From NCBI GenBank assembly GCA_022826885.1, contig JAJDUB010000059.1, positions 7,172 to 71,171 of the forward strand: 64,000 nucleotides of DNA, in the 5' to 3' direction. This DNA is from Gammaproteobacteria bacterium. GTDB taxonomy: Bacteria > Pseudomonadota > Gammaproteobacteria > Eutrophobiales > Eutrophobiaceae. The stretch's first letter is position 1. Every line of letters begins with the position of its first letter. This document shows positions 31,560 to 49,329 of the stretch, piece after piece. The notes below the pieces were generated by a model. The model was not told the origin of the DNA. It ran no database searches and saw nothing but the letters and a program-made list of their open reading frames with translations. The translations under genes and the position numbers were made by a program.

Positions 31560-32384
31560 TTACGGCAGCTTGCCCTCGGGGTTGGTGCACTCTGAGGTGA
31601 ACGCCTGCTTCCATTCACCCAGCCGTTCCTCGAAATCCTCCCAGTCGCTCAGATCGCTTGTGTTCCTGTACATGGCAAACGGACGCAGGCTGTCAAGATA
31701 AAATTGCACCTGCTCATCTTTCCTGAACTTTTCCGCTTCATAACGGTTCCAGTGGACCACCTGCTGCAGGGGCCGCCGGTACCTGGAAGAAACGTCTTTT
31801 GCCGGGAAACCGATGGGAATGGTGCCGTAGGCCCTCAGGAACGGGGGATATCCCAATAATTCACTCAACTCATCGTTGGTCTGTTGCTCACCGCCGCCGG
31901 ACAGCCACGCAGAGGTCAGTCCGTTCGCAGTGACCGCCAGTTGTATATTCTGTATTGCGGCGCCGATGGAGCAGTAAAAGATATTCTCGTTATTCTGCTG
32001 GTAATCCGCTTCGGTTTCCGGTGTCACGCCATGGGGGAAATTGATATTCCAGCGCCGGTCTCCCAGAACGATGAAGATGGCAACCGTATTGTTGAGGTAA
32101 CTTTTGTAGACGGACGGAAATCCTTTCGCGTATTTCTTCAGCCGGTCGGCCTGGCGCAGGAACACCTCCACCACCCGGTCCCGCATGTCCGGGTCTTCCA
32201 CGACGATGAAGTCCCAGGGCTGCACGTTCGCGCCGCTCGGCGCCCAGCGCCCCGCTTCGGCAATACGTTCCAGCACCTCGCGGGAGATGGATCGTCCCTT
32301 CTCGAAGCGGCGCACGCTGCGCCGCTTGCGGATTATATCGATGAACGCGTCGTAGTCGGGATTGTTCAGCTTTACGTCAGCCAC
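31560..32384 (-). CDS. Nitroreductase family flavoprotein
   Basis: RRSVRRF, WAPSGANVQPWDF, SIGAAIQNIQLA. Probable GTG start at 32384 overlaps the receptor stop. Confidence 0.85.
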   Translation of the reverse strand: MADVKLNNPDYDAFIDIIRKRRSVRRFEKGRSISREVLERIAEAGRWAPSGANVQPWDFIVVEDPDMRDRVVEVFLRQADRLKKYAKGFPSVYKSYLNNTVAIFIVLGDRRWNINFPHGVTPETEADYQQNNENIFYCSIGAAIQNIQLAVTANGLTSAWLSGGGEQQTNDELSELLGYPPFLRAYGTIPIGFPAKDVSSRYRRPLQQVVHWNRYEAEKFRKDEQVQFYLDSLRPFAMYRNTSDLSDWEDFEERLGEWKQAFTSECTNPEGKLP

Positions 32385-34674
32385 CCCAGTTATATCGAAT
32401 GGTTCCGCCGAACCAGCGCGGCGGGTTGGGCACATCGATCAGTATCCCCGTGAAGGTGCTCAGATCGAATGTCGTCGCTACGTAATTTTCGTTGGTGAAA
32501 TTCTTCAGCCACAAACCAAGTTCCCATCTGCCATTACTGGTGGTGTAGTCAATCCTGGCATTCGCCACGACGTAAGAACCATCAAACAGGGCGGGATGAT
32601 CAATACCGTTCAGGGCCCGCCGGTCAACATAGTTGAAATCAACCTGGGCAGCCATCGAGCCTCCAGCCATGGGCCATTCGTAACGGCCCAGGCCGTTGAG
32701 CGTCACATCAGGCGCATTCGGCATGGGCATGTCCCGGGTAGCGCCGGCAAACGTGACGTCTTTTTGTTTGGCGTCCTGCAGCGAGAGGCCAAGCAGGAGT
32801 TCCAGGCCCTCGAACGGATTGGCAGTAAGTTCGATTTCAGCTCCCGTGTTTTCCGCGTCGGTATTAAATACGATCAGGTTTATCCCCTGTGCGGAAAAAT
32901 TCTGGAAGCCTTCATAATCATAATGAAACACGCTTGCATTGAGGCGCGCCCTGCCATTGAATAACGTGGCTTTAACTCCACCTTCATAACTTTTCAATAC
33001 TTCTCCATCGAACGAGAATACCGTGGCTGCGTCAAAGAGGAAAGTCGCGCCGGCGTTGTATCCACCTGCTTTATTACCGCGGCTGTACTTTGCGTACACC
33101 AGCAAATCGTCAGTGGGCGTCCAGTCCAGTTCAAACACCCCCGACCATTCTCCTTCGCTGCGACTATCGGCAAGGGGTGGGCCGATCTGTGCCGTGCCGC
33201 CGAAGAAAAGGTCGCAGGGATCGGCAGGCAAGCCGAATGCTTCACCCGGTCCCGCATTGAAACACAGCGGTGTGGCTGCAATGTCCTTTTCGTCTTCCGT
33301 CCAGCGGAACCCGCCTATGAACGTAAACTGGTCTGTCAGCGCGTACTCAGCCTGCAGGAAAACAGCATAGCTTTCCGTTTCAAGCTCAATGGTATTGTCG
33401 AAATCGACCAGGCAACAGTTCATTAAGCCGGTAATAGCCAGAATATCACTGTCGATATTCAGGTAATAGGCGCCTGCCACCCATTTGAGCTTTTCTGTCT
33501 CCCCATGAATCTGCAATTCCTGGGAAATCTGGTTGCTGTCCACTCCCTGCTCATAGGTAAACAATGGCGCCGGCGTGCCATCAACATCTTCCAGGTACTG
33601 CTTCTCAAAATCCTGCCAGTTGGTTATGGATACGATTTTCAGTCCGTCACTGACGTCCCATTCGATCTTGCCGGTCAGTCCATAGTGATCACGTTTAAAA
33701 AACCCTGGCTCATTGAGGGAGATCTTGTTATCACCATCGTCCGGTTCGGTAAACCCGAAACAGTCGGTTGCGCCGGGCGCCAGCGGGAATGGCGGCCCCA
33801 ACCAGGCTGCGCAAAAAGCATCCTGCTGTGCGGCCGTCCCTATCTTGGTCAAACCGTCGCCCACAAGACCGGGTATCGCGCCGGGGGCGAAATCGTTCAA
33901 TGCGGGTCGAATATTATATCCCTGGCCATAGGCGTCATCGATCCCCCAGTTTCCCGTTACATGCACGGATAAATCATCACTGGGTTCAAAGAGCAGTTGT
34001 ACCCGGCCGCTGAAATTATCGACATCGTTTACATCAGGGCCAGTCCGGTTTTCCTGGTAACCGTCCGTATTTTCATAGGCAAGGGACAAACGGCCCGACA
34101 AACTGTCCCCGAGAGGACCGTTGACCGCGCCTTCTGCACGAATCTGGCCGTATTCCCCACCTGTCAGTTCAAGAAACCCTTCGTTCTCACGGGTTGGCTT
34201 GTTGGATATTACATGCACCAGCCCGCCGGTTGCGTTACGTCCGAACAAGGTGCCCTGCGGGCCGCGTAAAACCTCGATGCGGTCAACGTCAAAAAAGCTG
34301 AAAGCTATACCGCCCATATAACTGTTGTAAATTCCGTCTGAATAGACGGCGACCGGAGGTTCCTGGTGGTCTGCAAAATCAAGCTGGGACGACCCGCGGA
34401 TGGTGAACTGGGTAATCGTACCGCCGAAATCCGTCACCAAAAGACCGGGGACCATATCATCCAGTTGCAGTGTTGAAGTAATGCCCAACTGTTTAAGCTG
34501 TTTTCCGGAGAATGCGGTAATGGAAATACCGACATCGGAGATGTCCTGCTCGCGTTTTTGCGCGGTGACGGTAATTTCTTCGAGAACCGCCGAGTAGGAA
34601 ACTGTCGATAACAACGACAACAGAACCGTACCGAATAAAAAATTTCCAAAACCACTGAATGTTTTTGCCTTCAT
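32377..34674 (-). CDS. TonB-dependent outer membrane receptor
   Basis: Signal peptide, LEEITVTAQKRE, RIEVLRGPQGTLFGRNATGG, terminal aromatic-rich strand. Confidence 0.93.
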   Translation of the reverse strand: MKAKTFSGFGNFLFGTVLLSLLSTVSYSAVLEEITVTAQKREQDISDVGISITAFSGKQLKQLGITSTLQLDDMVPGLLVTDFGGTITQFTIRGSSQLDFADHQEPPVAVYSDGIYNSYMGGIAFSFFDVDRIEVLRGPQGTLFGRNATGGLVHVISNKPTRENEGFLELTGGEYGQIRAEGAVNGPLGDSLSGRLSLAYENTDGYQENRTGPDVNDVDNFSGRVQLLFEPSDDLSVHVTGNWGIDDAYGQGYNIRPALNDFAPGAIPGLVGDGLTKIGTAAQQDAFCAAWLGPPFPLAPGATDCFGFTEPDDGDNKISLNEPGFFKRDHYGLTGKIEWDVSDGLKIVSITNWQDFEKQYLEDVDGTPAPLFTYEQGVDSNQISQELQIHGETEKLKWVAGAYYLNIDSDILAITGLMNCCLVDFDNTIELETESYAVFLQAEYALTDQFTFIGGFRWTEDEKDIAATPLCFNAGPGEAFGLPADPCDLFFGGTAQIGPPLADSRSEGEWSGVFELDWTPTDDLLVYAKYSRGNKAGGYNAGATFLFDAATVFSFDGEVLKSYEGGVKATLFNGRARLNASVFHYDYEGFQNFSAQGINLIVFNTDAENTGAEIELTANPFEGLELLLGLSLQDAKQKDVTFAGATRDMPMPNAPDVTLNGLGRYEWPMAGGSMAAQVDFNYVDRRALNGIDHPALFDGSYVVANARIDYTTSNGRWELGLWLKNFTNENYVATTFDLSTFTGILIDVPNPPRWFGGTIRYNWGG

Positions 34675-34735
34675 TTGAACCTCCCCTCGTAGTTATTCTA
34701 TGAAGTACAACTCATTTTCCAGTTACCGCCCTGGA

Positions 34736-35326
34736 TCACAATTTAACACACATCGCAATCCGGGTGCATTTTTTGTTATTGCAGTCAGTTACATCGTCGG
34801 CGCACGCGCTGACCGCCACCAGGCAATCCGCTTCCGCCCTTAATTCAATGTAGTCGTCTTTTTTGGAGGGGGAAGCTGCAACAAATAATTCACCATCCTC
34901 CCGCACCCCGGTATTCATGAAAATATTGAAGGGGTCCGGCAAGTCATCGGAAGAGATCCCGAACGGCTCCACTGCCGCCGACAGGTTCTCGAAACAGCCG
35001 TTGCGCGGGCCGACACCAAGAAGGTGTTCGTAAACATGAGAATGGCAGGGAGAGAAAACAATATCATGAACGCCGACGCTGTCCGCCGTTATCGTAAACA
35101 TGACATTGTCGCGGTTGGATATGAGTTCAGAGCCGGCCGAAAGGCGTGTGGTCCAGTTGCGCACCCGGGTTTTGGCCTGGGAGAACTTTTCCGCGTAATC
35201 GTCCAGTGAGAAACAGACGAAATCCGCGACCTGGCCGCCGTCCATGTCCTCCACCCGCAAAACCTGTCCCTGTTTCACCCGGACTGCCCGGCCGGATTTA
35301 GGTTCGATAATAATCTTGTTATCCAT
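34736..35326 (-). CDS. DUF1989 (urea-carboxylase-associated / YcgI-like) protein
   Basis: GGQVADF, GVHD...PC...GCFENL, PDPFNIFMN, LVAVSAC...CN. Confidence 0.85.
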   Translation of the reverse strand: MDNKIIIEPKSGRAVRVKQGQVLRVEDMDGGQVADFVCFSLDDYAEKFSQAKTRVRNWTTRLSAGSELISNRDNVMFTITADSVGVHDIVFSPCHSHVYEHLLGVGPRNGCFENLSAAVEPFGISSDDLPDPFNIFMNTGVREDGELFVAASPSKKDDYIELRAEADCLVAVSACADDVTDCNNKKCTRIAMCVKL

Positions 35327-35358
35327 TCACCACCCCATGTATGCTCCGCATTCTGTAT

Positions 35359-35391
35359 GATCATCATATTGTTTGTCAAAAGTTGATGATC
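35359..35391. promoter_or_regulatory. Inverted repeat in divergent promoter, putative operator
   Basis: GATCATCA-N17-TGATGATC between the DUF1989 and MFS starts. Confidence 0.45.
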
Positions 35392-35440
35392 GGGTCAATC
35401 CTTTGTAGCATCAAATAAATCTACCTTGCCTGTAGCCTCC

Positions 35441-36574
35441 ATGCCTAAACAGATAACCATGATAAGCACGGTTGCCGTATGTCTTGCTTACACAATCGCC
35501 CTGGTGCCGGGGAATTTAAGCCCCTTGATTGTCGGAGGACTCATCGCCGGTCTCGGACTGGGTGTGGCGGACGCCGGCATGAGCCTCAGTATCGAACTGT
35601 TGCTCATGGGTATTGCAGCAACCGGCCTGGCAACGCGGATATCCCGTATCGATGCCCGAAACGCATGCCTGGCAGGGGCGGCTGTATTATTTCTTGGTCA
35701 TGGATTTGCCGCTGTGGCCGGGAACCTGGAGGAAGTGATCGTATGGCGCAGTCTTGCGGGTGTAGGGGCCGGCGTTGTGCTCGCTGCTGTCAATGCAACC
35801 ATCGCCGGCTCATCCAATCCTCCCCGGTTATACGGGTTGACGCTCATGGCCCCGCCGTTAATCGGCGCCGTTGTCGCGTTCTTCATGTCACGCGCAATCG
35901 CTGCTTTCGCACATGCCGGCGCCTACGGCGTCCTGGCGCTGCTTACCCTGTTGGTATTGCCAATACTTGTCGTGTTTCCCGATTATCGCAGGGAAGCTAT
36001 GTCAATACAGCCGGAACCACTGCAAAATCACGGTCCGGGGGTAGCTCTCCTGCTCGCAACCTTCATCATGGGAACCTGCATGATGGCGTATTTTGCCTTC
36101 CTTGAGCGCCTTGGCGTCAGGCTGGACCTTTCGATCGAACGGATAGGTGATATCTTCACAGCCGTTGTGGTCGGCGGCGCCATTGGCGCCGGTATTGCCG
36201 GTGTTCTTGAGAAACGCATCGGACTCCGTCTCCCGTTAGTAGGTGGTGTCATACTTCACGCAACAGCCATAAGCATGGTTGTTCAGATCGAAGTATTGCC
36301 GGTATATATTGCAGGGGCATTGCTCGAAGGTATTACTCTGGTTTTTTTACTGACGTTCCTGCTCACGACAGCAGCCCTGCTCGACCCGCTCGGGCGCTGG
36401 GCGGCCGCGACGGGCGGCGCTTTCTCGTTAAGTCTCGGCGCGGGTCCTTATCTTGGAGGGGTGCTTATCGAGGCAGCAGGGTTTGAAGCACTAACCATTC
36501 TTAATATTGCCGGCGCCATCGTGGTAATTTTTCTTATCCTGTGGGCGACGAAATACGTTCGGGCCGATCAATAG
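35441..36574 (+). CDS. MFS transporter
   Basis: About 12 hydrophobic helices; WRSLAGVGAG motif; start uncertain (35426-35460). Confidence 0.8.
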   Translation: MPKQITMISTVAVCLAYTIALVPGNLSPLIVGGLIAGLGLGVADAGMSLSIELLLMGIAATGLATRISRIDARNACLAGAAVLFLGHGFAAVAGNLEEVIVWRSLAGVGAGVVLAAVNATIAGSSNPPRLYGLTLMAPPLIGAVVAFFMSRAIAAFAHAGAYGVLALLTLLVLPILVVFPDYRREAMSIQPEPLQNHGPGVALLLATFIMGTCMMAYFAFLERLGVRLDLSIERIGDIFTAVVVGGAIGAGIAGVLEKRIGLRLPLVGGVILHATAISMVVQIEVLPVYIAGALLEGITLVFLLTFLLTTAALLDPLGRWAAATGGAFSLSLGAGPYLGGVLIEAAGFEALTILNIAGAIVVIFLILWATKYVRADQ

Positions 36575-38049: not shown

Positions 38050-38134
38050 AATATACTCCGTAATTCACAAAATGATAATTAAAGGTACTCGTTGTACCCG
38101 AACGGGTCAACATCTGTCTGATACGGAGTAACGC

Positions 38135-38770: not shown

Positions 38771-38890
38771 TTTTCCCTGGCCATTCATATCTACACAAAG
38801 AGCGTAAGTTCCGCACCACGGGCGCCAAACCGGGCATACTCAAATAGGGTTACATCCATGCCATTGCCTTCGTGATATTATCTGAATGCC

Positions 38891-39919
38891 ATGAATCAGG
38901 CGGTATTGGAAAACAAGCTCCTGCAGTTGGCTACCGGTCATCAACTGGCGGCCGCCCTGTACTTCGTTACGGTCAATAAAATTCCCGATTGCCTGAAAAA
39001 CGGGCCGCGAACGGCAGAGGATATAGCGGCTGCAGTCGGATTGCCGGCCGGGTCTGTTTACCGCCTGCTGCGGGCGATGACTACATCCGGGATATTCCGT
39101 TTGGAGGGCGGCCGGTTCTCATTGACGGAAATCAGCGACCTGCTGCGTACGGACCATGCCCGGAGCCAGCGTTCCAAGGTCCTGCTCGCTGCAAGCGACC
39201 TGGATGTATGGTCCAGGTTGGGCGAGGCCGTGGAACTGGAGGACGCCATACCCGATGTGAAAAAGGACTGGTATCTCGAATGGGGCAAAGACGAGGACCC
39301 CATCATGATTTTCGACAAGGCGATGCGCTCCTACTATTTTGATGCGCCGGCGCCTCTCCTGGGGGTTTATGATTTCGGCAGCATCAACACCCTGGTGGAC
39401 ATCGCGGGCGGTGATGGCGGTCACCTGATTGAAATACTGAAGGCACACCCGGACATGAAGGGTATTCTCTTCGAGCAACCTGAAACAGCGCGACGTGCGG
39501 AGGGCTATATCAGTGAAGCAGGGTTATCGGGAAGATGTGTGTGTGTCGCTGGAGACTTCTTCAAACCGGAATCCATACCTGGTAACGGTGATGCTTACAT
39601 GATGCGAAACATCATGCATTGCTGGGCCGATGAGCCCTGCAGGCAAATTCTGACAAACATCACTATGCGTATGCCCGATACTGCACGTATCCTTGTCATG
39701 GAACAGAAGCTCCCCTCAAGTGATGAACAACTGAATAACTGCGTGGAACATTGGGGCGTCACTCCGGCGTGGTGGGATATGTTGATGTTATTATGGTTCG
39801 GGGGAGCGGAACGCACCGTAGAGGAATTCGAAACCCTGTATGAGTCTGCCGGTATGAAGCTGGCCAATGTAATGGAAGGCAACCTGGGTACTGTTGTTTA
39901 TGAAGGCGTCAAGGTTTAG
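38891..39919 (+). CDS. SAM-dependent methyltransferase family 2 (O-methyltransferase with dimerisation domain)
   Basis: N-terminal wHTH (YRLLRAM...GIF), LVDIAGGDG, AGDFF, DAYMMRNIMHCWAD, G.ERT..EF. Confidence 0.88.
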   Translation: MNQAVLENKLLQLATGHQLAAALYFVTVNKIPDCLKNGPRTAEDIAAAVGLPAGSVYRLLRAMTTSGIFRLEGGRFSLTEISDLLRTDHARSQRSKVLLAASDLDVWSRLGEAVELEDAIPDVKKDWYLEWGKDEDPIMIFDKAMRSYYFDAPAPLLGVYDFGSINTLVDIAGGDGGHLIEILKAHPDMKGILFEQPETARRAEGYISEAGLSGRCVCVAGDFFKPESIPGNGDAYMMRNIMHCWADEPCRQILTNITMRMPDTARILVMEQKLPSSDEQLNNCVEHWGVTPAWWDMLMLLWFGGAERTVEEFETLYESAGMKLANVMEGNLGTVVYEGVKV

Positions 39920-39945
39920 CAATATTTTTACAAAGCAAGCGGCAT

Positions 39946-41049
39946 ATGATTTCTGATATTGATGCGTTGATGGACCGGCGCCAGACCGGTTACAGCCTCC
40001 CCCGGCCATTCTATACCGACGCGGACGTTTACCGGTTGGACACCGGGCATGTTTTCAGCAAACTCTGGATGCTGGTCGGTCATGTTTCCCAGATCCCGGA
40101 ACCAGGCGATTATTTCCTGGCTGAAATTGCCGGAGAATCCATATGCGTCGTACGCCGGGATAAAGAGGATATCGGCGCTTTTTACGACGTGAGTCCCCAC
40201 GCCTGTCATGTGCTGCTATTCGAAGGGTTGATATTCATCTGTCTCGCCGGGGATTCTCCGCCTGATGTCGATTCCACGCTGCAGGAAATAGCGCCTTTCG
40301 TGAAACCACAAAATCTGGTAGGCGCCAGGGTCATTCACGAAACCGTCCTGGCTACCGATGCAAACTGGAAACTGGTCGTCGAGAATTTCTGGGAATGTAA
40401 TCACTGCGAACCTTCGCACCCTGAATTCATGACGGTCCATGGTAGAAACTGGGTGCTGGCGATGGGCGCGGGCCTTGGCGCGTGCGTCTCGGAACAGGCT
40501 GAAATGGACTACCGGGAGGAATTCAAGGCATTTGAAGCGCGCGCTCAATCGCTGGGGCATCCTTTCGGTTCAGCCTCGAAGTTGGGCCTGGCGTCAACGG
40601 AGTTCTGGCAGGTCCTGCGTTCTCCGTTGGCGGAAGGTTGTTACTCGGAGACGCGGGACGGCAGAAAGGTGGGACCGTTGATGGGAGACCTCAATGACTT
40701 TGACGGCGGGATGACCCACATCAGTTTCAATCCGCTGGCTTCACTCTGGTTGTGCAACGATCATGCAGTCACATTCAACTTTCGGCCGATGGGGCCCATG
40801 TCTACGGATGTGCATATGATGTGGCTGGTGAACGGGGATGCGGAACCGGACAGGGATTTCACCGTGGAGGAAGTCGCATGGATGTGGACAACGACCGGGC
40901 TTCAGGACAAGACGATCACTGAAAATAACCAGTCCGGCATTAACTCGAGTCGCTATCGGCCGGGGCCGTACTCACTGATGGAGCGGCAGCTTGAAGACTT
41001 TGTGCAATGGTATTTCGCACGGCTGCGAGAGGCCGGCGCCGGCTCCTGA
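39946..41049 (+). pseudogene. GbcA/Stc2-like Rieske oxygenase alpha subunit lacking its Rieske [2Fe-2S] ligands (in-frame deletion)
   Basis: Catalytic domain intact (NWKLVVENFWECNHCEPSHPE; QDKTITENNQSG) but AFYDV runs directly into SPHACHVLLFEGLIF; no CxH...CxxH pair anywhere. Confidence 0.7.
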
Positions 41050-41087
41050 ACAATTTGAACAGCGATACGCAAGGGGAGGCACTGAAG

Positions 41088-42113
41088 ATGGCCAAGATCA
41101 AGGCGGTGTTATTCGGCACCGGCAACATGGGCAGGTTGATAGCCGGATACCTGGTTGAGAAAGGCGTGGAGATCACCGGCGCCGTCAGTCAAACACATGT
41201 AGGACAGGACCTCGGCGATGTGACCCGGATCGGCCGTCCTGTGGGAGTCACGGTCAGTGGGGACCCGGAGGAAATGCTGGCAGGGACCGAAGCCGATATT
41301 GCCGTGTTGGCGACCTGCAGTTCGATGGCGGAACTGTATCCTGACGCCAGCTTGTGCCTGCAACGGGGAATTAATGTGGTGACGATAACGGAAGGGGCGT
41401 TTTATCCCTGGACCTATGACCCCGACATGGCTGCAGATTTGGACAACCTGGCAAAACAGCATGGCGTGACGCTGACGGCCACCGGGGTGCAGGACATATT
41501 CTGGATAAATTCCATCGCACTCCTGACCGGCGCCTGCCACCGGATAGACATCGTCGAATTCGAAGGCACAGCCGATTTCGGGACTCTCGGGCCTGCCGTA
41601 TTGAACAACCTCCCGTTGGGACTGACACCTGAGCAGTTTCAGGAAATGGCCCCTCCACCGGGCGCAAAGCCGCCGGCATCGATAGTGGGAATGGGGTTCG
41701 AGGCATTGATCAACAAATTGCGCCTGACCATCAACAAGGTCGATGGCGGGATAGAGCTTGTGCTGGCAGGTAACGACGTCGAATGCATCGGCTTGAACAA
41801 GGTAATCAGGGCGGGACAGATAAACGGCCTGCGCGAGATCCTGGCGATCGAGACTGCCGAAGGTCCCGTATTTCGCGCAAGATTTGCCGCGAAAATATTT
41901 GAACCGGATGACCGGGAAAACTATACATGGAATATCAGGGGAGTTCCGGACATCCACCTGCAGCAGAATGATGTGCCCAGCGTGGAAATAACCTGTGCTT
42001 CAATCGTTAACCGCATCCCGGATGTCCTGAACGCGGAACCGGGATTTATAACCGCAGAGAAACTTGACACTCCATTTTACCGAACGTCATCACTGGAGAA
42101 TTATATTGATTAA
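41088..42113 (+). CDS. NAD(P)H-dependent amine dehydrogenase / 2,4-diaminopentanoate dehydrogenase-like protein
   Basis: GTGNMG Rossmann motif, GINVVTITEGAFYPW, TLTATGVQDIFW, C-terminal TCASIVNRIPDVLNAEPG. Confidence 0.75.
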   Translation: MAKIKAVLFGTGNMGRLIAGYLVEKGVEITGAVSQTHVGQDLGDVTRIGRPVGVTVSGDPEEMLAGTEADIAVLATCSSMAELYPDASLCLQRGINVVTITEGAFYPWTYDPDMAADLDNLAKQHGVTLTATGVQDIFWINSIALLTGACHRIDIVEFEGTADFGTLGPAVLNNLPLGLTPEQFQEMAPPPGAKPPASIVGMGFEALINKLRLTINKVDGGIELVLAGNDVECIGLNKVIRAGQINGLREILAIETAEGPVFRARFAAKIFEPDDRENYTWNIRGVPDIHLQQNDVPSVEITCASIVNRIPDVLNAEPGFITAEKLDTPFYRTSSLENYID

Positions 42114-43233
42114 CCCACCTTTTCGCGCCGAACACGTAGGCAGTTTACTGAGACCGAAAGCCCTCCTTGAAGCCAGGGAGCAGCTACAGGGAGATGTTTA
42201 CAGTGAATACAAGGGAAGTCTTGCCATTAATGAACTCAAGGATCTTGAGGATCAATGCATAACCGGAATCATTAAAATGCAGGAAGATATCGGCCTGCAC
42301 GGCATCACAGACGGAGAGTTTCGCCGCCGCTCCTGGTTCCAGGACTTCATGCTGGAAATGAACGGCGCGTCAATCAGGTTCGTCGAGGGGACATTCGTGG
42401 ACGGCAAAGGGCATAAACTTCCCACACCGACTCCGCACTTTGATGAAAAACTCCAACCCCGTTCGGGAATTACCACTGAGGCATTTACCTTTCTGGCAAG
42501 CAAAACAAGCCGGACAGCCAAGGCAACCATACCCTCACCGAACATGGCTCACGTATTCGGCGGCAGGGCTGCCATCAGTGAAACCGCTTATCCGGACCTC
42601 GAGGAATTCTGGGAGGATCTGGCGTTGGTATACCGGCAGGAACTGGTCCACCTGGCAGAACTCGGATGCCGCTATGTCCAGGTTGACGATTGCGCGTTCA
42701 CGATGCTCCTGGATGATGATGTACGCGGCCGGCTGGAGGAACGGGGCGATGACACGGAACAACTGTTGGACACGTATATCCGGGCCATCAACCTGGCCTT
42801 GCAGGACCGTCCGGAAGGGATGGTGATAGCAACACACCTCTGTCGCGGCAACAACCGGGGGCACTGGCTTGCTTCCGGAGGCTACGATGTTGTAGCGGAA
42901 AAACTGTTCAACCAGTTACAGGTCGATGCCTTTTTTCTCGAATATGATTCGTCACGCGCCGGCACTTTTGAGCCGCTCCGCTTCATGCCGCGGGATAAAA
43001 CCGTCGTATTGGGGCTGATTTCCTCCAAGGTACCGGATCTCGAAAACAGCAACGAGGTCAAGCAACGAATTCAAGACGCGAGCAAATATGTTCCTGTTGA
43101 AAATCTCTGTCTGAGTCCGCAATGCGGATTCGCCAGCGTCTTTCAAGGCAATCCGGTCACCGATGCGCACCAGCGCGCCAAGCTGTCACTGATTGTTGAT
43201 GTGGCAAACGATGTGTGGGGCGGCCTGGAGTAA
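42106..43233 (+). CDS. Core (single-barrel) cobalamin-independent methionine synthase II family protein (YxjH/MetE C-terminal-like)
   Basis: PPFRAEHVGSLLRP, TDGEFRR, THLCRGN, FFLEYD, LSPQCGFAS zinc ligands; TTG start after GGAG. Confidence 0.88.
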   Translation: MINPPFRAEHVGSLLRPKALLEAREQLQGDVYSEYKGSLAINELKDLEDQCITGIIKMQEDIGLHGITDGEFRRRSWFQDFMLEMNGASIRFVEGTFVDGKGHKLPTPTPHFDEKLQPRSGITTEAFTFLASKTSRTAKATIPSPNMAHVFGGRAAISETAYPDLEEFWEDLALVYRQELVHLAELGCRYVQVDDCAFTMLLDDDVRGRLEERGDDTEQLLDTYIRAINLALQDRPEGMVIATHLCRGNNRGHWLASGGYDVVAEKLFNQLQVDAFFLEYDSSRAGTFEPLRFMPRDKTVVLGLISSKVPDLENSNEVKQRIQDASKYVPVENLCLSPQCGFASVFQGNPVTDAHQRAKLSLIVDVANDVWGGLE

Positions 43234-43239
43234 GTTGCT

Positions 43240-43266
43240 GACGCTCTGAACAAGTCCAGAGGTTCC
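43240..43266. repeat. Short palindromic element, copy 2
   Basis: GACGCTCTGAACAAGTCCAGAGGTTCC aligns with 31524-31552; lies between convergent genes. Confidence 0.5.
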
Positions 43267-43272
43267 TCACGA

Positions 43273-43809
43273 TTACAAAGTTAATTCCCGGACAAGATCG
43301 CCTGTCAATGGGAAAAACCTGTCTGCGACATTCTTCAGTTCGTTTGACGGATCGGCCTGGTACTCAAAAAAAGCATTCTCGACTTCCTTGCCGTGTCTTT
43401 GTACCGCTTCGATCGCGGGACGCAGTGCCGGGCGGCGGCTGATAACTACGGCAATATCATAACTGTCGTTCATGCCTTGCTCGAACATGTCCAATGCCAG
43501 CATGACGTCAACCCCCTGGTCCAGGTACATGCCTCCCCGCACCTGCATCTCCGTCGCTCTGGTGCTGAAACCCTGATCGGCCATAAGGCTCAACAATTCA
43601 CGCTGTGCCGTTTCCTTTTTCGGGTAGCACTGCCCCGGGTAAATCGCAAGCCAAGCAGACTTGCCGGTTACCGTGCGCTCGCCTGCGATGTGATCTACCA
43701 GGGCTGAATAATCAATCCTCCAGGGCATGCCCTGTCCCCTGAGTCCGTCCAGCAACCAGCCGGCGTCGATGAAAGCGCTTACCCTGGGCTGAAGTATCTG
43801 TGTCGTCAT
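43273..43809 (-). CDS. NYN (LabA/DUF88, PIN-like) domain protein with degenerate active site
   Basis: FIDAGWL, QGVDVMLALDM, YDIAVVISRRPALRPAIEAVQRHGKEVE, ELKNVADRFFPL. Confidence 0.75.
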   Translation of the reverse strand: MTTQILQPRVSAFIDAGWLLDGLRGQGMPWRIDYSALVDHIAGERTVTGKSAWLAIYPGQCYPKKETAQRELLSLMADQGFSTRATEMQVRGGMYLDQGVDVMLALDMFEQGMNDSYDIAVVISRRPALRPAIEAVQRHGKEVENAFFEYQADPSNELKNVADRFFPLTGDLVRELTL

Positions 43810-43850
43810 GATCTGTCTTGTCCCCGTTACGATATCAGGCCATGCCTATT

Positions 43851-44711
43851 TCAGCAGGACTCGGCAAAACGCAGGATCGCCTGCGAGAGCTCGCTTTCTG
43901 AATCAAACAACCTGAATATATTGGTGGTATGGTCTTCACCCTCTACATCGAGGTAATCGGCCCGTAACCCCTTATTTCTCCATGCCGCTACAAACTCCTC
44001 CGATTGCCGGTGGAACTCGACCGACTCCTCCGCCCCTAACGCGACAAGCAATGGTGGTCCCGAAGCGGGAATGTGAAACAGCGGGCTTTCATTGAATACC
44101 ACATCGCCTGTCAGTTGCAGTTTGGCCTGCAGCCAGCAGTACCGAAACGGTCGCAAATCAAACAATCCGCTGATCGGGATACCTCCCCGGATTACGTCAG
44201 CCGGCATTCCGTAATCCTCCCAGTTGGTAACAGCCAGCATTCCCACCTGGTGGCCACCGGCAGAGTGGCCGGTCACGAAAATACGTCCGCTATCACCATT
44301 GATACTCTCTGCGTTTCGATAAGCCCATGCAACCGCAAGCCTGCTCGCGGCCGTGATGTCCGGAATGCCGACCTTTGGACACAATGCGTAGTCGCTGGAA
44401 ATGCAGGCGAAGCCGAGATCCGCCAGTCCCTTAATGCAGAAGTTGAACAGCTTTCGTGTCCCCAGACGCCACCATCCGCCATGAATGAAGATAATTATCG
44501 GGGAGTCCTTTTTCCTTGCAGGGAATACGTCAATCCGCTCTTCGTCGCGCGCCCCGACGGGAATATCCACCTGGTGTTCCAGCGCTTCAAGCGTTTGGGA
44601 GCTTCTGTGTATAAACGTATCGAAATAGGGAATGATGTCCCACAGGTGATTCTCGATATCGAGTTGCGGATCAATCTGCGCTTGATCCATGAAGTTGTCA
44701 TAGGGGTTCAC
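43851..44711 (-). CDS. Alpha/beta hydrolase, arylformamidase (kynurenine formamidase)-like
   Basis: FIHGGWW oxyanion motif, GHSAGG nucleophile, DHTT His region. Confidence 0.82.
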   Translation of the reverse strand: MNPYDNFMDQAQIDPQLDIENHLWDIIPYFDTFIHRSSQTLEALEHQVDIPVGARDEERIDVFPARKKDSPIIIFIHGGWWRLGTRKLFNFCIKGLADLGFACISSDYALCPKVGIPDITAASRLAVAWAYRNAESINGDSGRIFVTGHSAGGHQVGMLAVTNWEDYGMPADVIRGGIPISGLFDLRPFRYCWLQAKLQLTGDVVFNESPLFHIPASGPPLLVALGAEESVEFHRQSEEFVAAWRNKGLRADYLDVEGEDHTTNIFRLFDSESELSQAILRFAESC

Positions 44712-44730
44712 TATCTTATCCTGTTATTCA

Positions 44731-45933
44731 CTATTCGAATATTTCCGGGGCGGATGATTGCAGGCTTTCAATATACCACTTGTGGAAGTGCCAGAGCGTT
44801 GCTTCGCTATGTGAGGTCCTCCCCTGGACTGCAAAACCGGACCGTTTTCCTCTGTACATCTGCGTAATGCCCCAGAAATCCTCATCTATTACCAACTTGG
44901 CGCTCTGTTTGTAGGCTTCAAATTTTTCCGTGAAATCCGGTGCTTCTGCCGCTTCTTTGCTGACCCCAATTCCATAGCGTCCCGTTGTCCTGTTATGGGT
45001 CTGCGGGTTTATCTGCGTGATAAACAAAAGATCCGGATTGAAGTACCAGCTGAAATTGGGAAATACGATACCCCCCACCGCAGCATTCATATCGGACTCA
45101 TCGAGGTTGCCGGGCAGGGCAAAACCTCCTGTCAGGGAATAATCGTCGGGGTTCAGGATGTCCGAGTTGTCACCTGAGGGAAGACGAAACAGGCAATATG
45201 CAGGCATATTGGTGTTTTCAATTACTGTCTTGCCGGCCGGAACAGAATCGCCCAGTGATATTTCATGGACGGAATCCGTGTGGTAGTTTTCCGCAAATAT
45301 ATCTACTACACATTTCCAGTTCGCCTCAAGATCAAATTCCCCCATTTCGAAATAAACCATGTCATCCGTCTCATGACGCAGGAACTTCGGTTCCAGGTCA
45401 GCGAGTCGGGGGGCCAGCTCCGGTACGGGCCCGCGTTCCATGTTCACGAAGATAAAGCCTCGCCAGACTTCCAGGTGAAACTCATGAAGGCGCCAGTCCC
45501 CGGCTGAAAAATCTCTTGCATTTTCCATGAGCGGGGCGCCCCGAAGCGTGCCATCAAGATTGTATATCCAGTTATGGTAGCGACACCTGAGCAGATTGCA
45601 GTTGCCGCGATCATGGGCAACAGGAAAATTCCGGTGGACACACACATTGGATAACGCATGCAGTTTATCGGCCCTGTCCCGTATTACCAGTACCGGCTCC
45701 TCACAAAAATCAACGGTGAAGTAATCGCCGGGTTTGCCGACCTCGCTGATATGACCGACGGGAATCCAGGACGATTTCAGCAAATGTTCCTTTTCCAGTT
45801 CAAAAACAGCCGGATCGCTGTAGAAGCGCGGGGGGATGGTCGTCGCGGAGTTATATTCGAGCAGGCAACCTTCCACTTCCTCTGCCCGAAACCGATTCGA
45901 TACCTGCCTGGTGCTGACTGGGGTGGTAGACAT
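44731..45933 (-). CDS. Rieske oxygenase alpha subunit, choline monooxygenase/CntA/GbcA-like group
   Basis: NVCVHR...CRYHNW Rieske ligands, ANWKCVVDIFAENYHTDSVH, IDED. Confidence 0.88.
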   Translation of the reverse strand: MSTTPVSTRQVSNRFRAEEVEGCLLEYNSATTIPPRFYSDPAVFELEKEHLLKSSWIPVGHISEVGKPGDYFTVDFCEEPVLVIRDRADKLHALSNVCVHRNFPVAHDRGNCNLLRCRYHNWIYNLDGTLRGAPLMENARDFSAGDWRLHEFHLEVWRGFIFVNMERGPVPELAPRLADLEPKFLRHETDDMVYFEMGEFDLEANWKCVVDIFAENYHTDSVHEISLGDSVPAGKTVIENTNMPAYCLFRLPSGDNSDILNPDDYSLTGGFALPGNLDESDMNAAVGGIVFPNFSWYFNPDLLFITQINPQTHNRTTGRYGIGVSKEAAEAPDFTEKFEAYKQSAKLVIDEDFWGITQMYRGKRSGFAVQGRTSHSEATLWHFHKWYIESLQSSAPEIFE

Positions 45934-45985
45934 TGAAAACCTCTTTATATGGTCATATTACAGGGCGCCTCTGAAGTGTATCATT

Positions 45986-46513
45986 TCACCTGAATACCTC
46001 CATATACTCGATGATAAGTTCCCGTTGTTCCGCGTTGCTCAACCCGGCAAACGCCATGCGGTTGCCCGGCACCAGTTCGGTAGGTTTTTCCAGAAATTCG
46101 TTCATGTTCTCTGCAGTCCATATTTTGCCGTAATCCTGCATCGCCCTGGAATAGGCAAAACCTTCAATAGAACCCGCCGCCCTGCCAAATACCTCTGCAA
46201 GGGGAGGACCGACAACAGACGGTTGGCCCGGTTCCACGGAGTGGCAGACGCCGCAACGAAGCCTGAACAATTTTTCGCCTTCACTGTTGATTGCGCCCCT
46301 GGTTACTTTTGTGACGGCTGCATGCCTGTCCTCTTCGCCGCGCATGGAACTAGGCGTATCGCCGTTACAGCCGGATATGCAACAGGCTGCCAGGACCAGC
46401 ACGCTACATATTACGTTTTTTTTCTTTACCGGTTTTTCAATGATGTAAGAAACTGGTTTCAATATCTGTCCGGGTCTGTTCGTGAGTTTGTTGTTACACC
46501 GGTAGCGCGGCAC
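45986..46513 (-). CDS. Class I cytochrome c (c2-like), probably lipoprotein-anchored
   Basis: CGVCH heme motif, VGPPL..VFGR.AG...F.YS, PGNRMAFAG axial Met, N-terminal VLAACCISGC lipobox. True start uncertain and probably downstream of 46513. Confidence 0.88.
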   Translation of the reverse strand: MPRYRCNNKLTNRPGQILKPVSYIIEKPVKKKNVICSVLVLAACCISGCNGDTPSSMRGEEDRHAAVTKVTRGAINSEGEKLFRLRCGVCHSVEPGQPSVVGPPLAEVFGRAAGSIEGFAYSRAMQDYGKIWTAENMNEFLEKPTELVPGNRMAFAGLSNAEQRELIIEYMEVFR

Positions 46514-47660
46514 CCTTTTTCAGTGAACGGTCAATTGTAAGGAACAAATACCAGGAGAATGAATTGGCAATCAATACGATCCAGCCCATCGAAGCGGCGC
46601 CAAAGTTCTCGATAATATATCCGCCAAGATACGGACCGACCGCGCCGGTCAACAGGAAAGCTCCTGCAGTGATGGCTGCATCACGCCCCGATGGATCCTG
46701 GTCTGCTGCATAGCCAAGGAAATAGGGCACAAGGAAGTACATGCCCACTACGTTGAATGCCGCTCCCAGGCGAAATGCAAGCGGGTGGTGCCAATGGGAC
46801 ATCGTATTGATCGCGACAATCAGGATAAGGACGCCCAGGGTGAGCGGAAGCAGGCGTCCAAACCTGGCGCCGACCAGCGTTGCCGACAAAGCGCCGAATA
46901 CTGAAACCAGCGCCGCCATTCCAACCGCGTTGTGAATTTCTCCTTCACCCAGACCCGCCATGTCTCCCAGCAGGTAATAGAAAGACCACATGGCGCCGGC
47001 CCCGAGAGACACTATAAATACAGCAATAACCAGCGTTACGAGTTTCAGGGAGAAAATACCATGAGCGGGGAGCGCAGCGGGGGTTGAGCGGACTCGTCCC
47101 TGGTCAGCAGTGCCTGATAACAGGGGTATGAGCAGTGACAAAACGGCTATGCCGGCAAAAATCGTCGGAAAAACAATATATTCCAGGTTGAAATACCCGG
47201 CCGTTAGCGGCAGGGAAAAAACGGCCGCCGAACAAAACAGGATGGCAGCGATGTTTATTATGCCGTAAGCCCTGTCGGGTTCCCTGAAGTTTGCCAGTGA
47301 AGCGCTGGCGGCAGCAAGCATTGCCCCTTCGCCAAAACCGGTAAGCGGGCGTGAAATCAACAGTAAATCGTAATCCTGGATTGTCATCGACCAGGCTGCT
47401 CCGGAAAGTGTGACAACGGCGCCGATAGTTGCAATCCGGAGTAATGACAGTTTGTCGAGCAGTTTACCGAACAGGGCAGCGCTCAAAGCGATTGTGGTCA
47501 TCTCCACCGATGCGACAAGGCCTCCTGCGGCTTCTCCTACGTCATACCGAACCATTACCTCATGTATGAGCGAAGGTTGCAGCCACCAAGCGATATTGGC
47601 AATACAATAGGCTGCTGCGCTACCGACGAGGACTCTGCCCTGAAGTATGACTGGCGCCAT
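46494..47660 (-). CDS. MFS transporter
   Basis: About 12 TM helices, SRPLTGFGEG, VGARFGRLLP; start set at ATG 47660 because the longer ORF-track N-terminus overlaps the opposite gene. Confidence 0.82.
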   Translation of the reverse strand: MAPVILQGRVLVGSAAAYCIANIAWWLQPSLIHEVMVRYDVGEAAGGLVASVEMTTIALSAALFGKLLDKLSLLRIATIGAVVTLSGAAWSMTIQDYDLLLISRPLTGFGEGAMLAAASASLANFREPDRAYGIINIAAILFCSAAVFSLPLTAGYFNLEYIVFPTIFAGIAVLSLLIPLLSGTADQGRVRSTPAALPAHGIFSLKLVTLVIAVFIVSLGAGAMWSFYYLLGDMAGLGEGEIHNAVGMAALVSVFGALSATLVGARFGRLLPLTLGVLILIVAINTMSHWHHPLAFRLGAAFNVVGMYFLVPYFLGYAADQDPSGRDAAITAGAFLLTGAVGPYLGGYIIENFGAASMGWIVLIANSFSWYLFLTIDRSLKKGAALPV

Positions 47661-47871
47661 AAACTGCCTCTTGTCTCCGGTTAACGGCAAAATGACATCA
47701 TAGCCTATCCCACTGTTACATTCCTGTCTGTCACACTCGAATGTTACACGATCATTTGACTGGACAGAGGGCTCCAGGCTATGTGCTATGATGCTGAAGA
47801 TTGCGAAAGTACCACCATCTGCCGGCGCCGCGACCCAGCGTCCGGGCGCCGGATATTCAGGAGGGCGAATC

Positions 47872-49329
47872 ATGGCTAAATCAGAAACAGAGTCCGGAAC
47901 ACATAGTGGCCGGGAAGGGGTAAGCCGCAGAAGCGTGTTAGGTGGTATGGCGGCCATAGGAGGTGCCGTTGCCACGGGGTCCGCGCTGCAGGGGTGCACA
48001 GACGGCGGGGATGCGGAAGCACCGGATGTCATTGTGATCGGTGCAGGATTTGCCGGTTGTGTGAGCGCTCGGGACCTGGCTCACCGGGGTTACAAGGTCA
48101 CATTGCTGGAGGCGCAGGGGCGGCTTGGCGGTCGGGCCTTTACCTCGGAATTCGCCGGAAAGGTTTACGAGGCCGGCGCGCTGATGCTGTCCTGGAAGGA
48201 ACCGTTCATGTGGACAGAGGTGATGCGCTACGGACTCGAAATAGAACCCATAGTCGGTGTCCTCGCTCCGGAAGTGTGTTACTGGATCACTGACGGCAAG
48301 GCGATGAGCGCGCCGGCCGAGGAATTCTACGAGATATTCGTACCGCCAATATTTAAGTTCTTCGAGGATGTCGGGACGGTATTTCCGTATCCTTATGCTC
48401 CTTTGACAAACAGGGAAGCCGTGGAGAAACTCGACAGGCTTTCTGTCATGGACCGGGTCAAGACGTTGCCTACCCAGCAGGAGCGTGATTTCGCAGACAA
48501 CTGGGCATCAGCTCCATTGGGCCGTGCCGGGACCGATGTCGGGCTTGCCTCATCGATGGCGCTGACCAGCGCTTTCGGCGGTGTCCAGGCATCATTGGAA
48601 GGGGCCAGTTATCGCTTGAAGAAGGGAACGAGTAACCTGGTAGAGAAGATCGTTGAAGATGGAGGATTTGAGTACCGTCTGCAGTCTCCCGTTTCCTCCA
48701 TTGATCAATCCGGTACGGGAGTCACAGTTACCATTGAAAGCGGCGAGACTTTCACCGCCTCTGCCGTCGTATTGGCGACACCGGTCAATACCTATGAAAA
48801 TATCGATTTTACGCCACCACTGAGCCCGGAAAAACTGACCGTGTCAAAGGGGAAGATGGCAGGCGGGAAAGGCGCACATATCAACGCGAGATTGAAAGGT
48901 AAAATGCCGCCTCTACTGGCTGTGGCTCCCAGTCACATGCCGCTGCACCTGCTGCTGACGACAGACATCCTGGAAGACAGCGTGATAGTCGATGGCTACG
49001 GGCCGGATGCGAGCCTGTTTGACGGGGGAGACCCGGAGGCGGTTCAGGCGGTCATTCGCCAGTGGATACCGGATGTTGAGGTCATGGAAACCGTTTCATA
49101 CAGGTGGGATCTGGATCCTTTTTCACAAGGCACCTGGTGTGGTTTTGGCCCGGGTGTTCTGAGCAAATATTATGAAGCCCTTCGTGAACCGGAAGGCAAC
49201 GTATATTTTGCAAGCGGTGACAGCGCAACAGCTTTCAGAGGTTTTATGGAGGGAGCGATAGAGTCGGGCGTACGGGTTGCCCGGGATGTCCACAATGCGC
49301 TGAACTCCCGCAAGCAGGACCTCGGATAA
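47872..49329 (+). CDS. Flavin amine oxidoreductase (MAO family; NicA2/Pnao/6-HLNO-like) with Tat signal and lipobox
   Basis: SRRSVLGG twin-arginine motif then ALQGC; DVIVIGAGFAG, EAQGRLGGR, WDLDPFSQGTW, GFMEGAIESGVRVA; GGAGG RBS. Confidence 0.88.
   Translation: MAKSETESGTHSGREGVSRRSVLGGMAAIGGAVATGSALQGCTDGGDAEAPDVIVIGAGFAGCVSARDLAHRGYKVTLLEAQGRLGGRAFTSEFAGKVYEAGALMLSWKEPFMWTEVMRYGLEIEPIVGVLAPEVCYWITDGKAMSAPAEEFYEIFVPPIFKFFEDVGTVFPYPYAPLTNREAVEKLDRLSVMDRVKTLPTQQERDFADNWASAPLGRAGTDVGLASSMALTSAFGGVQASLEGASYRLKKGTSNLVEKIVEDGGFEYRLQSPVSSIDQSGTGVTVTIESGETFTASAVVLATPVNTYENIDFTPPLSPEKLTVSKGKMAGGKGAHINARLKGKMPPLLAVAPSHMPLHLLLTTDILEDSVIVDGYGPDASLFDGGDPEAVQAVIRQWIPDVEVMETVSYRWDLDPFSQGTWCGFGPGVLSKYYEALREPEGNVYFASGDSATAFRGFMEGAIESGVRVARDVHNALNSRKQDLG

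Follow-up and report, generated by a model that had tools for sequence, protein, structure and literature searches.

Each of the enzyme families at this locus has described relatives. Native amine dehydrogenases (nat-AmDHs) such as MsmeAmDH and CfusAmDH (EC 1.4.1.28) are recognised by a catalytic Glu at position P3, and for the family groups examined a large synteny survey shed no clear light on what these enzymes do in the cell (PMC11164908). Stc2 (stachydrine/proline betaine demethylase; 3vca, 4qup) and GbcA (glycine betaine monooxygenase) are alpha3-type Rieske oxygenases (ROs). Core methionine synthases (core MetE), with a single catalytic MetE domain and zinc ligands, include PRK06520/Listeria 1ypx, core-MetE (PMC7005905), MesD (PMC7857596) and the Phaeobacter 'Mes-like' enzyme (PMC12366255); MesD needs MesX and oxygen, and aerobic core MetE forms otherwise lack a named methyl donor (PMC7857596, PMC12366255).

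Members of these three families, together with an O-methyltransferase (OMT), are encoded by four + strand ORFs (38891-39919, 39946-41049, 41007-42113 and 42064-43233) in the window, by which we mean the whole 64-kb stretch of DNA analysed. The family assignments of the initial annotation were confirmed by Pfam and NCBIfam. Its description of the genes as co-oriented with short gaps or overlaps holds for the orientation, the reported overlaps being an artefact of choosing the longest ORF. The likeliest starts are ATG 41088 for gene 3 (AmDH), with a GGGGAGG ribosome-binding site ahead of it, and TTG 42106 for gene 4 (core MetE, ORF open from 42064), with GGAGA ahead; both fit the lengths of homologues (341–343 aa for AmDH, 374–377 aa for core MetE). 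Revised in this way, the spacing along OMT-RO-AmDH-core MetE is 26 nt, 38 nt and an 8-nt overlap, which, together with the ribosome-binding sites, is operon-like and of the translational-coupling type. The four genes form the core of a conserved island of ~17 kb, with the following features:

32377..36574, strand not given: TonB-dependent receptor, DUF1989 protein and MFS transporter (Pfam)
38891..39919, + strand: OMT, 342 aa, with N-terminal dimerisation domain (PF00891, PF08100)
39946..41049, + strand: Stc2/GbcA-type RO alpha subunit without the [2Fe-2S] cluster-binding segment, 367 aa (PF00848 only)
40183..40188, + strand: junction of a 147-bp in-frame deletion, between Tyr80 and Asp81 (DNA alignment)
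41088..42113, + strand: native amine dehydrogenase family member, 341 aa, nearest MsmeAmDH (PF19328)
42106..43233, + strand: core (single-domain) MetE-like homocysteine methyltransferase, PRK06520, 375 aa (NF005085)
43273..45933, - strand: NYN-like protein, HSL-type esterase and second, intact Rieske oxygenase (RO2) (Pfam)
45986..49329, strand not given: cytochrome c, MFS transporter and flavin amine oxidoreductase (Pfam)

The OMT carries both domains expected of the family-2/COMT type, Methyltransf_2 (PF00891; 1.5e-28, 100 bits) and the dimerisation domain (PF08100; 39.9 bits), and among solved structures it is closest to O-methyltransferases acting on aromatic hydroxyls (6c5b, CalO6 4z2y, AlpH and MmcR). 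A His is visible in its ...IMHCWAD... stretch. The AmDH is DAP_DH_C/Ord-like (PF19328), has the N-terminal Rossmann motif GxGxxG in the form GTGNMG, and aligns over its full length with MsmeAmDH (6iaq, E 8.8e-70) and CfusAmDH (6iau, 4e-50) in the PDB. Retention of the catalytic Glu in TITEGAFYPW, as initially proposed, is borne out: Glu102 (341-aa numbering) aligns with the catalytic Glu of 6iau (...GEEAFYPW) and 6iaq (...SEEMLYPW). Against the Ord (2,4-diaminopentanoate dehydrogenase) equivalog NF040740 the protein scored 154 bits, below the cut-off of 400. The gene 3 product is predicted to be a native amine dehydrogenase.

For the oxygenase, the initial label "GbcA/Stc2-type" stood as a statement of family membership and fell as a description of a working Rieske enzyme. 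Its best structural matches are Stc2 3vca/4qup (E 4e-49, TM 0.87), and its score against the GbcA equivalog NF058607 was 233 bits, below the cut-off of 670. Ring_hydroxyl_A (PF00848, E 7e-25) was the only Pfam match; the protein gave none to PF00355 (Rieske), and the Rieske remnant reached only 21.7 bits in the genome scan. The RO is 367 aa long, as against 415–430 aa in intact orthologues, and a 49-residue alignment gap takes out CxH...CxxH, that is, all four [2Fe-2S] ligands. The iron site is kept, with H153, H158 and D321 invariant and the bridging E150 at least 90% conserved across 45 homologues, and no further loss of family-conserved residues was found beyond the deleted segment. DNA alignment against the intact loci L015, L016 and L018 mapped the gap to the 147-bp in-frame deletion. 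This deleted form is common to five species, and its 90% clusters hold 67 member sequences. The deletion is a single event: its junction is identical at the DNA level in three genomes (G000, G020 and G007) and all 367-aa copies fall in one supported clade (99/96), which also includes the intact P0003, the order of P0003 and the two 367-aa subclades within it not being settled.

The deletion is older than the split of the five species, among which dS reaches 0.37. Stop codons and frameshifts are absent from the deleted copies, whereas 85–100% of copies gained at least one stop in neutral simulations. Omega across the five-species deletion clade is 0.20 (2ΔlnL 114 against omega = 1; binomial test for selection, p = 8e-17), and the Rieske-domain remnant has about double the omega of intact pairs (0.2–0.29 vs 0.11–0.15). 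With its ligands deleted, its reading frame open and an omega of 0.20, the RO is not a functional Rieske oxygenase of the classical kind, nor is it a pseudogene in decay. Since all four genes are under purifying selection (omega 0.17 for OMT, 0.12 for AmDH and 0.11 for core MetE in the five species), the truncated protein is being retained in some functional capacity, perhaps as a subunit that contributes only catalysis and draws its electrons in trans, perhaps in a non-redox role. No reductase gene was found in the island or in the islands of relatives; elsewhere in the genome, two ORFs have the size of FNR-type Fer2 reductases and about five that of stand-alone Rieske proteins. The literature searched yielded no report of a Rieske oxygenase that had shed its cluster-binding segment and yet been retained.

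The core MetE belongs to Meth_synt_2/PRK06520 (NF005085, 373 bits vs a cut-off of 313). The zinc motifs HxC...E...C are aligned with those of PDB entry 1ypx (E 3.4e-82); HLCRGN, LEYD and SPQCGF align with both 1ypx and MetE, and none of the zinc ligands H244, C246, E279 and C340 varies across 25 homologues. No match to the folate-binding N-domain (PF08267) was found in the genome, which also encodes MetH. PF08908 (DUF1852, MesX) had no match in the genome, the control genomes giving none either, and no MesX partner was seen in the island; likewise, no corrinoid protein was found near core MetE, in a check whose control gave no match either. In soil metagenome loci, homologues of this core MetE immediately precede BphC genes; as these loci are 77–87% identical to one another, they amount to one or two independent cases. 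Another homologue adjoins PnpCD in the window's own genome, and a third is fused to a VOC domain (P0288), where the surrounding DNA contains gene fragments and an IS element. Where members of this subfamily share operons with BphC-type dioxygenases in other lineages, methyltransferases are absent from the tallied neighbour families. Among relatives of the window's cluster, opposite-strand ring-cleavage genes (BphC in L016, BphC and a hydrolase in L017) separate AmDH from core MetE. Since MetH is present and core-MetE homologues recur beside extradiol dioxygenases, the dedicated role in SAM regeneration that had been proposed for this enzyme has weak support.

Co-conservation, on which the initially proposed operon depended, was found among relatives. 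OMT-RO-AmDH was contiguous and co-oriented in all ten distinct loci found, at RO identities down to 53%, and stayed so despite rearranged flanks (L016, L017 and G007 vs G000); core MetE directly followed AmDH in seven of the ten and lay 1–3 kb off in two. Part of this synteny may reflect shared ancestry, because the orthologous cluster occurs only within a narrow clade (dehydrogenase at least 67% identical). Distant AmDH homologues (39–41% identical) have quite different neighbours. The order RO then dehydrogenase recurs at 34% and 56% identity in L028, the only paralogous cluster found, which also carries an amine oxidase, an esterase, an NYN protein, an RO2-like gene, MFS transporters, DUF1989 and a TonB receptor. 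OMT and core MetE co-vary in that L028 lacks both.

Much of the surrounding island is shared as well. The NYN/esterase/RO2 block adjoins the module in most flank-covered loci (G020, G011, G007, the P0004 locus, L015 and L017), RO2 not being seen within L016; homologues of the cytochrome c, MFS transporter and flavin amine oxidoreductase do so in L016/L029 and in L028, and the TonB receptor and DUF1989 in the P0004 locus and in L028. Relatives' islands add a BphC-type ring-cleavage dioxygenase, a LuxR regulator and a meta-cleavage-type hydrolase. The window's genome shows no BphC or LuxR gene of the cluster; orthologues of the two were not found in G000, G020 or G011, and G007 keeps both together with a deleted RO. 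Neither SAH hydrolase nor SAM synthetase is present in the cluster. The module is embedded among genes for uptake, periplasmic amine oxidation and ring cleavage, and the idea of a self-contained unit does not survive this context; the same neighbours suggest breakdown instead of tailoring.

We give an even chance to a lineage-specific island in uncultured Gammaproteobacteria that catabolises a methylated and probably aromatic amine, with the four genes as its core operon. The bacteria carrying the island are uncultured marine bacteria. Catabolism is suggested because the TonB receptor, MFS transporters, flavin amine dehydrogenase with cytochrome c, RO2 and esterase all belong to the island, as do the BphC-type dioxygenase and LuxR regulator in relatives. 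The chemical steps are read from family membership and neighbourhood, for relatives with an intact RO. In these, the substrate would be taken up via the TonB receptor and MFS transporters, and the Stc2/GbcA-type RO would remove a methyl or add a hydroxyl group. The nat-AmDH would then oxidise a sec-alkyl amine to the carbonyl with NAD(P)+, freeing ammonia or methylamine; the OMT would place a methyl on an aromatic hydroxyl, and the BphC-type dioxygenase would later open the ring. Core MetE would methylate homocysteine from a non-folate donor, and its link to ring cleavage would be no weaker than its link to the OMT. A SAM-consuming methyltransferase is unusual for a breakdown route, which counts against the catabolic reading.

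In the unit first envisaged, a small amine or alkaloid is methylated, oxidised and (de)aminated while core MetE recycles homocysteine for the OMT's SAM. All four families are indeed present, co-oriented and co-conserved, the OMT's nearest solved relatives are natural-product tailoring enzymes, and OMT and core MetE are missing together from L028. We nevertheless consider this unlikely: in the window's lineage the RO cannot carry out Rieske chemistry, methionine synthesis is already provided for by MetH, the cluster lacks SAH hydrolase and SAM synthetase, and the module sits amid uptake, amine-oxidation and ring-cleavage genes. The opposite-strand ring-cleavage genes between AmDH and core MetE in L016 and L017, and the core MetE-BphC pairs elsewhere that have no methyltransferase among their tallied neighbours, also argue against it. 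A catabolic variant, which we rate as quite improbable, would have the island process a methoxylated or N-methylated aromatic amine by a methyl-conserving route, with core MetE as a cofactor-free demethylase and the Rieske-less RO as a catalytic-only subunit receiving electrons in trans. Core MetE would then move the methyl from an aromatic methyl ether (or methylamine) straight onto homocysteine, giving methionine, and the resulting catechol would pass to the adjacent BphC-type dioxygenase. Were this true, it would name the methyl donor of a widespread orphan core-MetE subfamily, supply a native role for nat-AmDHs, and show that a Rieske oxygenase can dispense with a cluster of its own.

The deleted ligands, the missing BphC and LuxR orthologues in three genomes and the raised omega of the Rieske-domain remnant could also be taken as erosion, with the RO dead, BphC and regulator gone, the rest being lost, and conservation reflecting recency. 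This we disfavour as very unlikely, given that the deletion predates the five-species split, that neutrality is rejected for an RO without stops or frameshifts in any copy, that G007 combines BphC and LuxR with the deleted RO, and that the deleted form has so many members. That the genes are unrelated neighbours in no common pathway, linked only through the youth of the clade, seems scarcely credible. The restriction of the orthologous arrangement to close relatives and the different surroundings of distant AmDH homologues would suit it; the trio's contiguity through flank rearrangement, the recurrent RO-dehydrogenase pairing in the paralogous cluster and the translational-coupling-type spacing speak against it.

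Returning to the proposed catabolic island, three points become testable at one locus: the role of nat-AmDHs, the donor of core MetE and the Rieske-less RO. The flavin amine oxidoreductase beside cytochrome c and transporters resembles the cytochrome-c-dependent flavin amine dehydrogenases of alkaloid catabolism, NicA2/Pnao with CycN, whereas the island's methyltransferase, Rieske oxygenases, nat-AmDH and core MetE have no counterpart in the nicotine pathway. Like Stc2 and GbcA, the RO belongs to the alpha3-type family and shares the 2-His-1-carboxylate iron site and bridging Glu position; unlike them, it lacks the entire cluster-binding segment and an adjoining reductase gene. An RO that has lost exactly this segment and is under purifying selection in five species is an unusual natural experiment on the autonomy of the catalytic domain. 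The window's core MetE is like known core methionine synthases in its single zinc-binding catalytic domain without the folate-binding N-domain, in an aerobe also having MetH, and unlike them in that its subfamily recurs beside extradiol dioxygenases, a pairing that suggests specific methyl donors for aerobic core MetE. The AmDH matches MsmeAmDH and CfusAmDH in full-length homology, GxGxxG and catalytic Glu, and differs from CfusAmDH in having Val at the position of Phe140, which may enlarge the pocket. Unlike the groups surveyed in PMC11164908, its clade has a fixed genomic context, giving these sought-after biocatalysts constant partners: an OMT and Stc2-type RO upstream, within an amine/aromatic island.

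The four genes lie on one strand, and Pfam and NCBIfam searches bore out the family assigned to each of them in the initial annotation (window coordinates):

38891–39919, + strand: family-2 O-methyltransferase with a dimerisation domain (OMT; Pfam, NCBIfam)
39946–41049, + strand: ring-hydroxylating oxygenase, catalytic domain only (RO; Pfam)
41007–42113, + strand, longest ORF: DAP_DH_C/Ord-like dehydrogenase (AmDH; Pfam, NCBIfam)
42064–43233, + strand, longest ORF: single-domain Meth_synt_2 protein (core MetE; PRK06520, 373 bits against a cut-off of 313)

The overlaps reported earlier were an artefact of taking the longest ORFs: an ATG at 41088 behind GGGGAGG gives an AmDH of 341 aa, and a TTG at 42106 behind GGAGA a core MetE of 375 aa, both in agreement with homologue lengths. 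With these starts the genes are separated by 26 nt and 38 nt, followed by an 8-nt overlap, a spacing typical of an operon. A consensus scan for promoters and terminators across 38000–46600 yielded counts not above those of shuffled controls, with no hit in the 120 nt preceding the operon. AmDH aligned end to end with the native amine dehydrogenases MsmeAmDH (6iaq, E = 8.8e-70) and CfusAmDH (6iau, E = 4e-50), which by sequence makes it a clear member of that family; the Glu in TITEGAFYPW, previously described as retained, aligned with the catalytic Glu of both enzymes, the position termed P3 in the active-site scheme of the family (PMC11164908). The nearest relatives of OMT were aromatic-hydroxyl O-methyltransferases from natural-product pathways. 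AmDH homologues at 39–41% identity had neighbour genes unrelated to the operon, and these distant contexts were therefore uninformative on function.

RO was closest to the stachydrine demethylase Stc2 and kept its iron ligands (H153, H158, D321) together with Glu150 at the bridging position, in line with the earlier assignment to a GbcA/Stc2 type. The remainder of that assignment did not hold: the best named NCBIfam model, GbcA, reached 233 of the 670 bits that its cut-off demands, and the alignment revealed that RO, at 367 aa compared with 415–430 aa in orthologues, lacks 49 residues extending exactly from the first Cys-x-His to a point past the second Cys-x-x-His. Since the ligands that define a Rieske centre are gone, RO does not qualify as a functional Rieske oxygenase; each of the other genes belongs to a known family. 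The junction of the 147-bp deletion was identical at the DNA level in the window's genome (G000) and the related genomes G020 and G007, and all 367-aa copies formed one clade with the intact 416-aa homologue P0003 (support 99/96), inside which the branching of P0003 and two 367-aa subclades was not resolved. The identical junction and shared clade fit a single deletion event. The deleted gene occurred in five GTDB species of the genus, full-length and open in all five, and its closest deleted homologue belonged to a 90% cluster with 67 member sequences.

Purifying selection maintains this Rieske-less gene. Pairwise omega within the deletion clade was 0.14–0.20 at dS up to 0.37, the same range as for intact copies (0.145; Nei–Gojobori), with 56 nonsynonymous and 72 synonymous differences among the deleted genes (binomial p = 8e-17). 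Under a GY+F3X4 codon model, the five deleted genes gave an omega of 0.20 (2dlnL = 114 against omega = 1), next to 0.17, 0.12 and 0.11 for the neighbouring OMT, AmDH and core MetE, respectively. In simulations at the observed divergences, 85–100% of neutral copies acquired a stop codon. Outside the deletion, changes at residues conserved in the family were no more frequent in the deleted copies than in their nearest intact relatives. On this evidence the gene is not a decaying pseudogene. Omega in the remnant of the Rieske domain was raised about twofold (0.2–0.29 versus 0.11–0.15 in intact pairs), with no such rise in the catalytic domain.

Any role of the truncated protein is inferred. Mixed trimers with an intact close paralogue look unlikely, because none was found and the nearest paralogues were only 36–38% identical. 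Electron supply in trans by other proteins is conceivable, given the other Rieske matches in G000, some of stand-alone size: among 57 PF00355 matches, 56 lie besides RO and about five are of that size. The same genome (contigs C1–C83) encodes 27 PF00848-type alpha subunits, of which RO alone lacks a full Rieske domain, compared with only two FNR-type Fer2 ORFs of reductase size. For a genome of 3.4 Mb it is very rich in Rieske proteins. An AlphaFold model of the truncated protein reached a pLDDT of 92.6, which we did not count towards its stability because the underlying alignment consists mostly of intact homologues. A literature search for Rieske oxygenases that lack the Rieske centre returned nothing relevant.

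Syntenic copies, called for in the initial annotation, were found. Ten distinct loci have OMT, RO and AmDH side by side in one orientation: the window, related genomes G020, G011, G007 and G021, the contig of homologue P0004, and loci L015, L016/L029, L017 and L018. Core MetE directly followed AmDH in seven of the ten; in L016 and L017 it lay 1.7–2.3 kb further downstream, with a BphC-type gene divergent from it, and the L018 contig stops too early to place it. Downstream of core MetE in L016, a 178-aa ORF without a Pfam match (13274–13810) is accompanied 1.4 kb beyond by a partial second copy, 86% identical (15249–15560). Partners conserved around the four genes were an NYN-like protein, an HSL-type esterase, a second and intact Rieske oxygenase (RO2), a LuxR-type regulator, a BphC-type extradiol dioxygenase, a cytochrome c, MFS transporters, a flavin amine oxidoreductase, a DUF1989 protein and a TonB-dependent receptor; L017 also carries a meta-cleavage-type hydrolase. 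The BphC and LuxR genes are missing from G000, G020 and G011, and are retained beside the deleted RO in G007. About 44 kb from L029 on the same contig, a paralogous cluster (L028:1–21026) contains an amine oxidase, an RO-like gene followed by an AmDH (34% and 56% identity), a TetR regulator, an OsmC-like gene, NYN, an esterase, an RO2-like gene, MFS transporters, DUF1989 and a split TonB receptor. It has neither a methyltransferase nor a core MetE. The recurrence of RO followed by AmDH in this cluster marks the pair as the deepest link in the module.

The left flank differs between loci, and in the window it comprises the following features:

35426–36574: 382-aa MFS ORF upstream of the sulfatase (MFS_1, C-terminal half only, 39 bits)
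36568–38770: sulfatase gene (− strand) and UDG-superfamily gene (+ strand), between the MFS ORF and the operon

The MFS ORF may be truncated or wrongly started; the MFS in the corresponding place in L015 reaches 175 bits. The sulfatase–UDG pair was shared by G000, G020 and G011 (whose contig ends inside the sulfatase gene) and absent from the arrangements in G007, L015 and L016; its place upstream of OMT is taken in G007 by a type I restriction R subunit. Between G000 and G007 (locus L011; window 38891–45933), dS was 0.29–0.37 for OMT, RO and AmDH, and 0.9–1.4 for core MetE, NYN, the esterase and RO2. Such mosaic divergence, together with the differing flank, suggests that the trio, deletion included, may have moved between species by recombination.

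The alignment of core MetE to the Listeria protein 1ypx spans the whole of core MetE (E = 3.4e-82), which keeps the zinc motifs (HxC, Glu, Cys). G000 has MetH and no MetE N-domain, and a search for the partner protein MesX gave no match, as did its control; on these grounds core MetE is accessory to housekeeping methionine synthesis. A second core MetE in the genome (C30:44275–45375; L021:8276–9376), 43% identical to that of the window and a stronger PRK06520 match (603 bits), lies among genes for a PnpCD-type hydroquinone dioxygenase, a Xi-like GST, a TetR regulator, a glyoxalase-fold protein and an Fe-ADH. Because PRK06520 matched in only three of the 300 genomes surveyed within the class, which do not suffice to tally neighbours, we used 141 neighbouring ORFs from about 50 metagenome loci with core-MetE homologues at 47–55% identity. 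The commonest families were acyl-CoA ligases (8), FadB-like enzymes (7), Peripla_BP_6 binding proteins (5), Glyoxalase/BphC proteins (5, four with a BphC_D1 domain), DctP (4) and P450 (2), a composition that characterises gene clusters for aromatic-acid catabolism. In four soil loci (L054, L078, L086 and L104), a BphC-type gene sits directly downstream of core MetE on the same strand, overlapping it in two; being mutually 77–87% identical, they amount to one or two independent observations. At other loci (L051, L064, L066, L067, L068, L073, L082, L087), core MetE is preceded by a 608–622-aa ORF that agrees in size with the acyl-CoA ligases of the tally; at several, a divergent ORF of ~680 aa precedes it, similar in length to the tallied FadB-like proteins. 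One called protein, P0288 (571 aa; L030:8001–9716), fuses a glyoxalase/VOC domain to core MetE, and counts as weak support because its decayed-looking surroundings hold a LigB gene, a P450 fragment, a second Meth_synt_2 fragment and an IS110 transposase.

Core MetE may transfer a methyl group from a methoxyphenol to homocysteine, which we offer only as an improbable reading since a search for MetE-like aryl O-demethylases found, among the papers covered, none linking the family to aryl demethylation. The earlier model, in which core MetE recycles homocysteine and SAM for OMT, accords with the joint absence of these two genes from the paralogous cluster, and taken whole we consider it improbable. 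It had cast the genes as a possible tailoring unit; the conserved gene content of the island resembles uptake and breakdown instead of synthesis. Judged from these genes, the island looks like a set for the uptake and breakdown of an amine-bearing aromatic compound. The gene identities, the deletion, the co-conservation and the selection are established; substrate class, breakdown direction and order of steps are inferences.

As first suspected, we found no described pathway with this combination. In a published synteny survey of the AmDH family, the groups examined yielded no clear clue to function (PMC11164908). The module described here is conserved, probably catabolic and confined to a narrow clade, and three features set it apart as unusual: a native amine dehydrogenase whose genomic context is fixed, a Rieske-less oxygenase under selection, and an orphan core MetE associated with ring cleavage.
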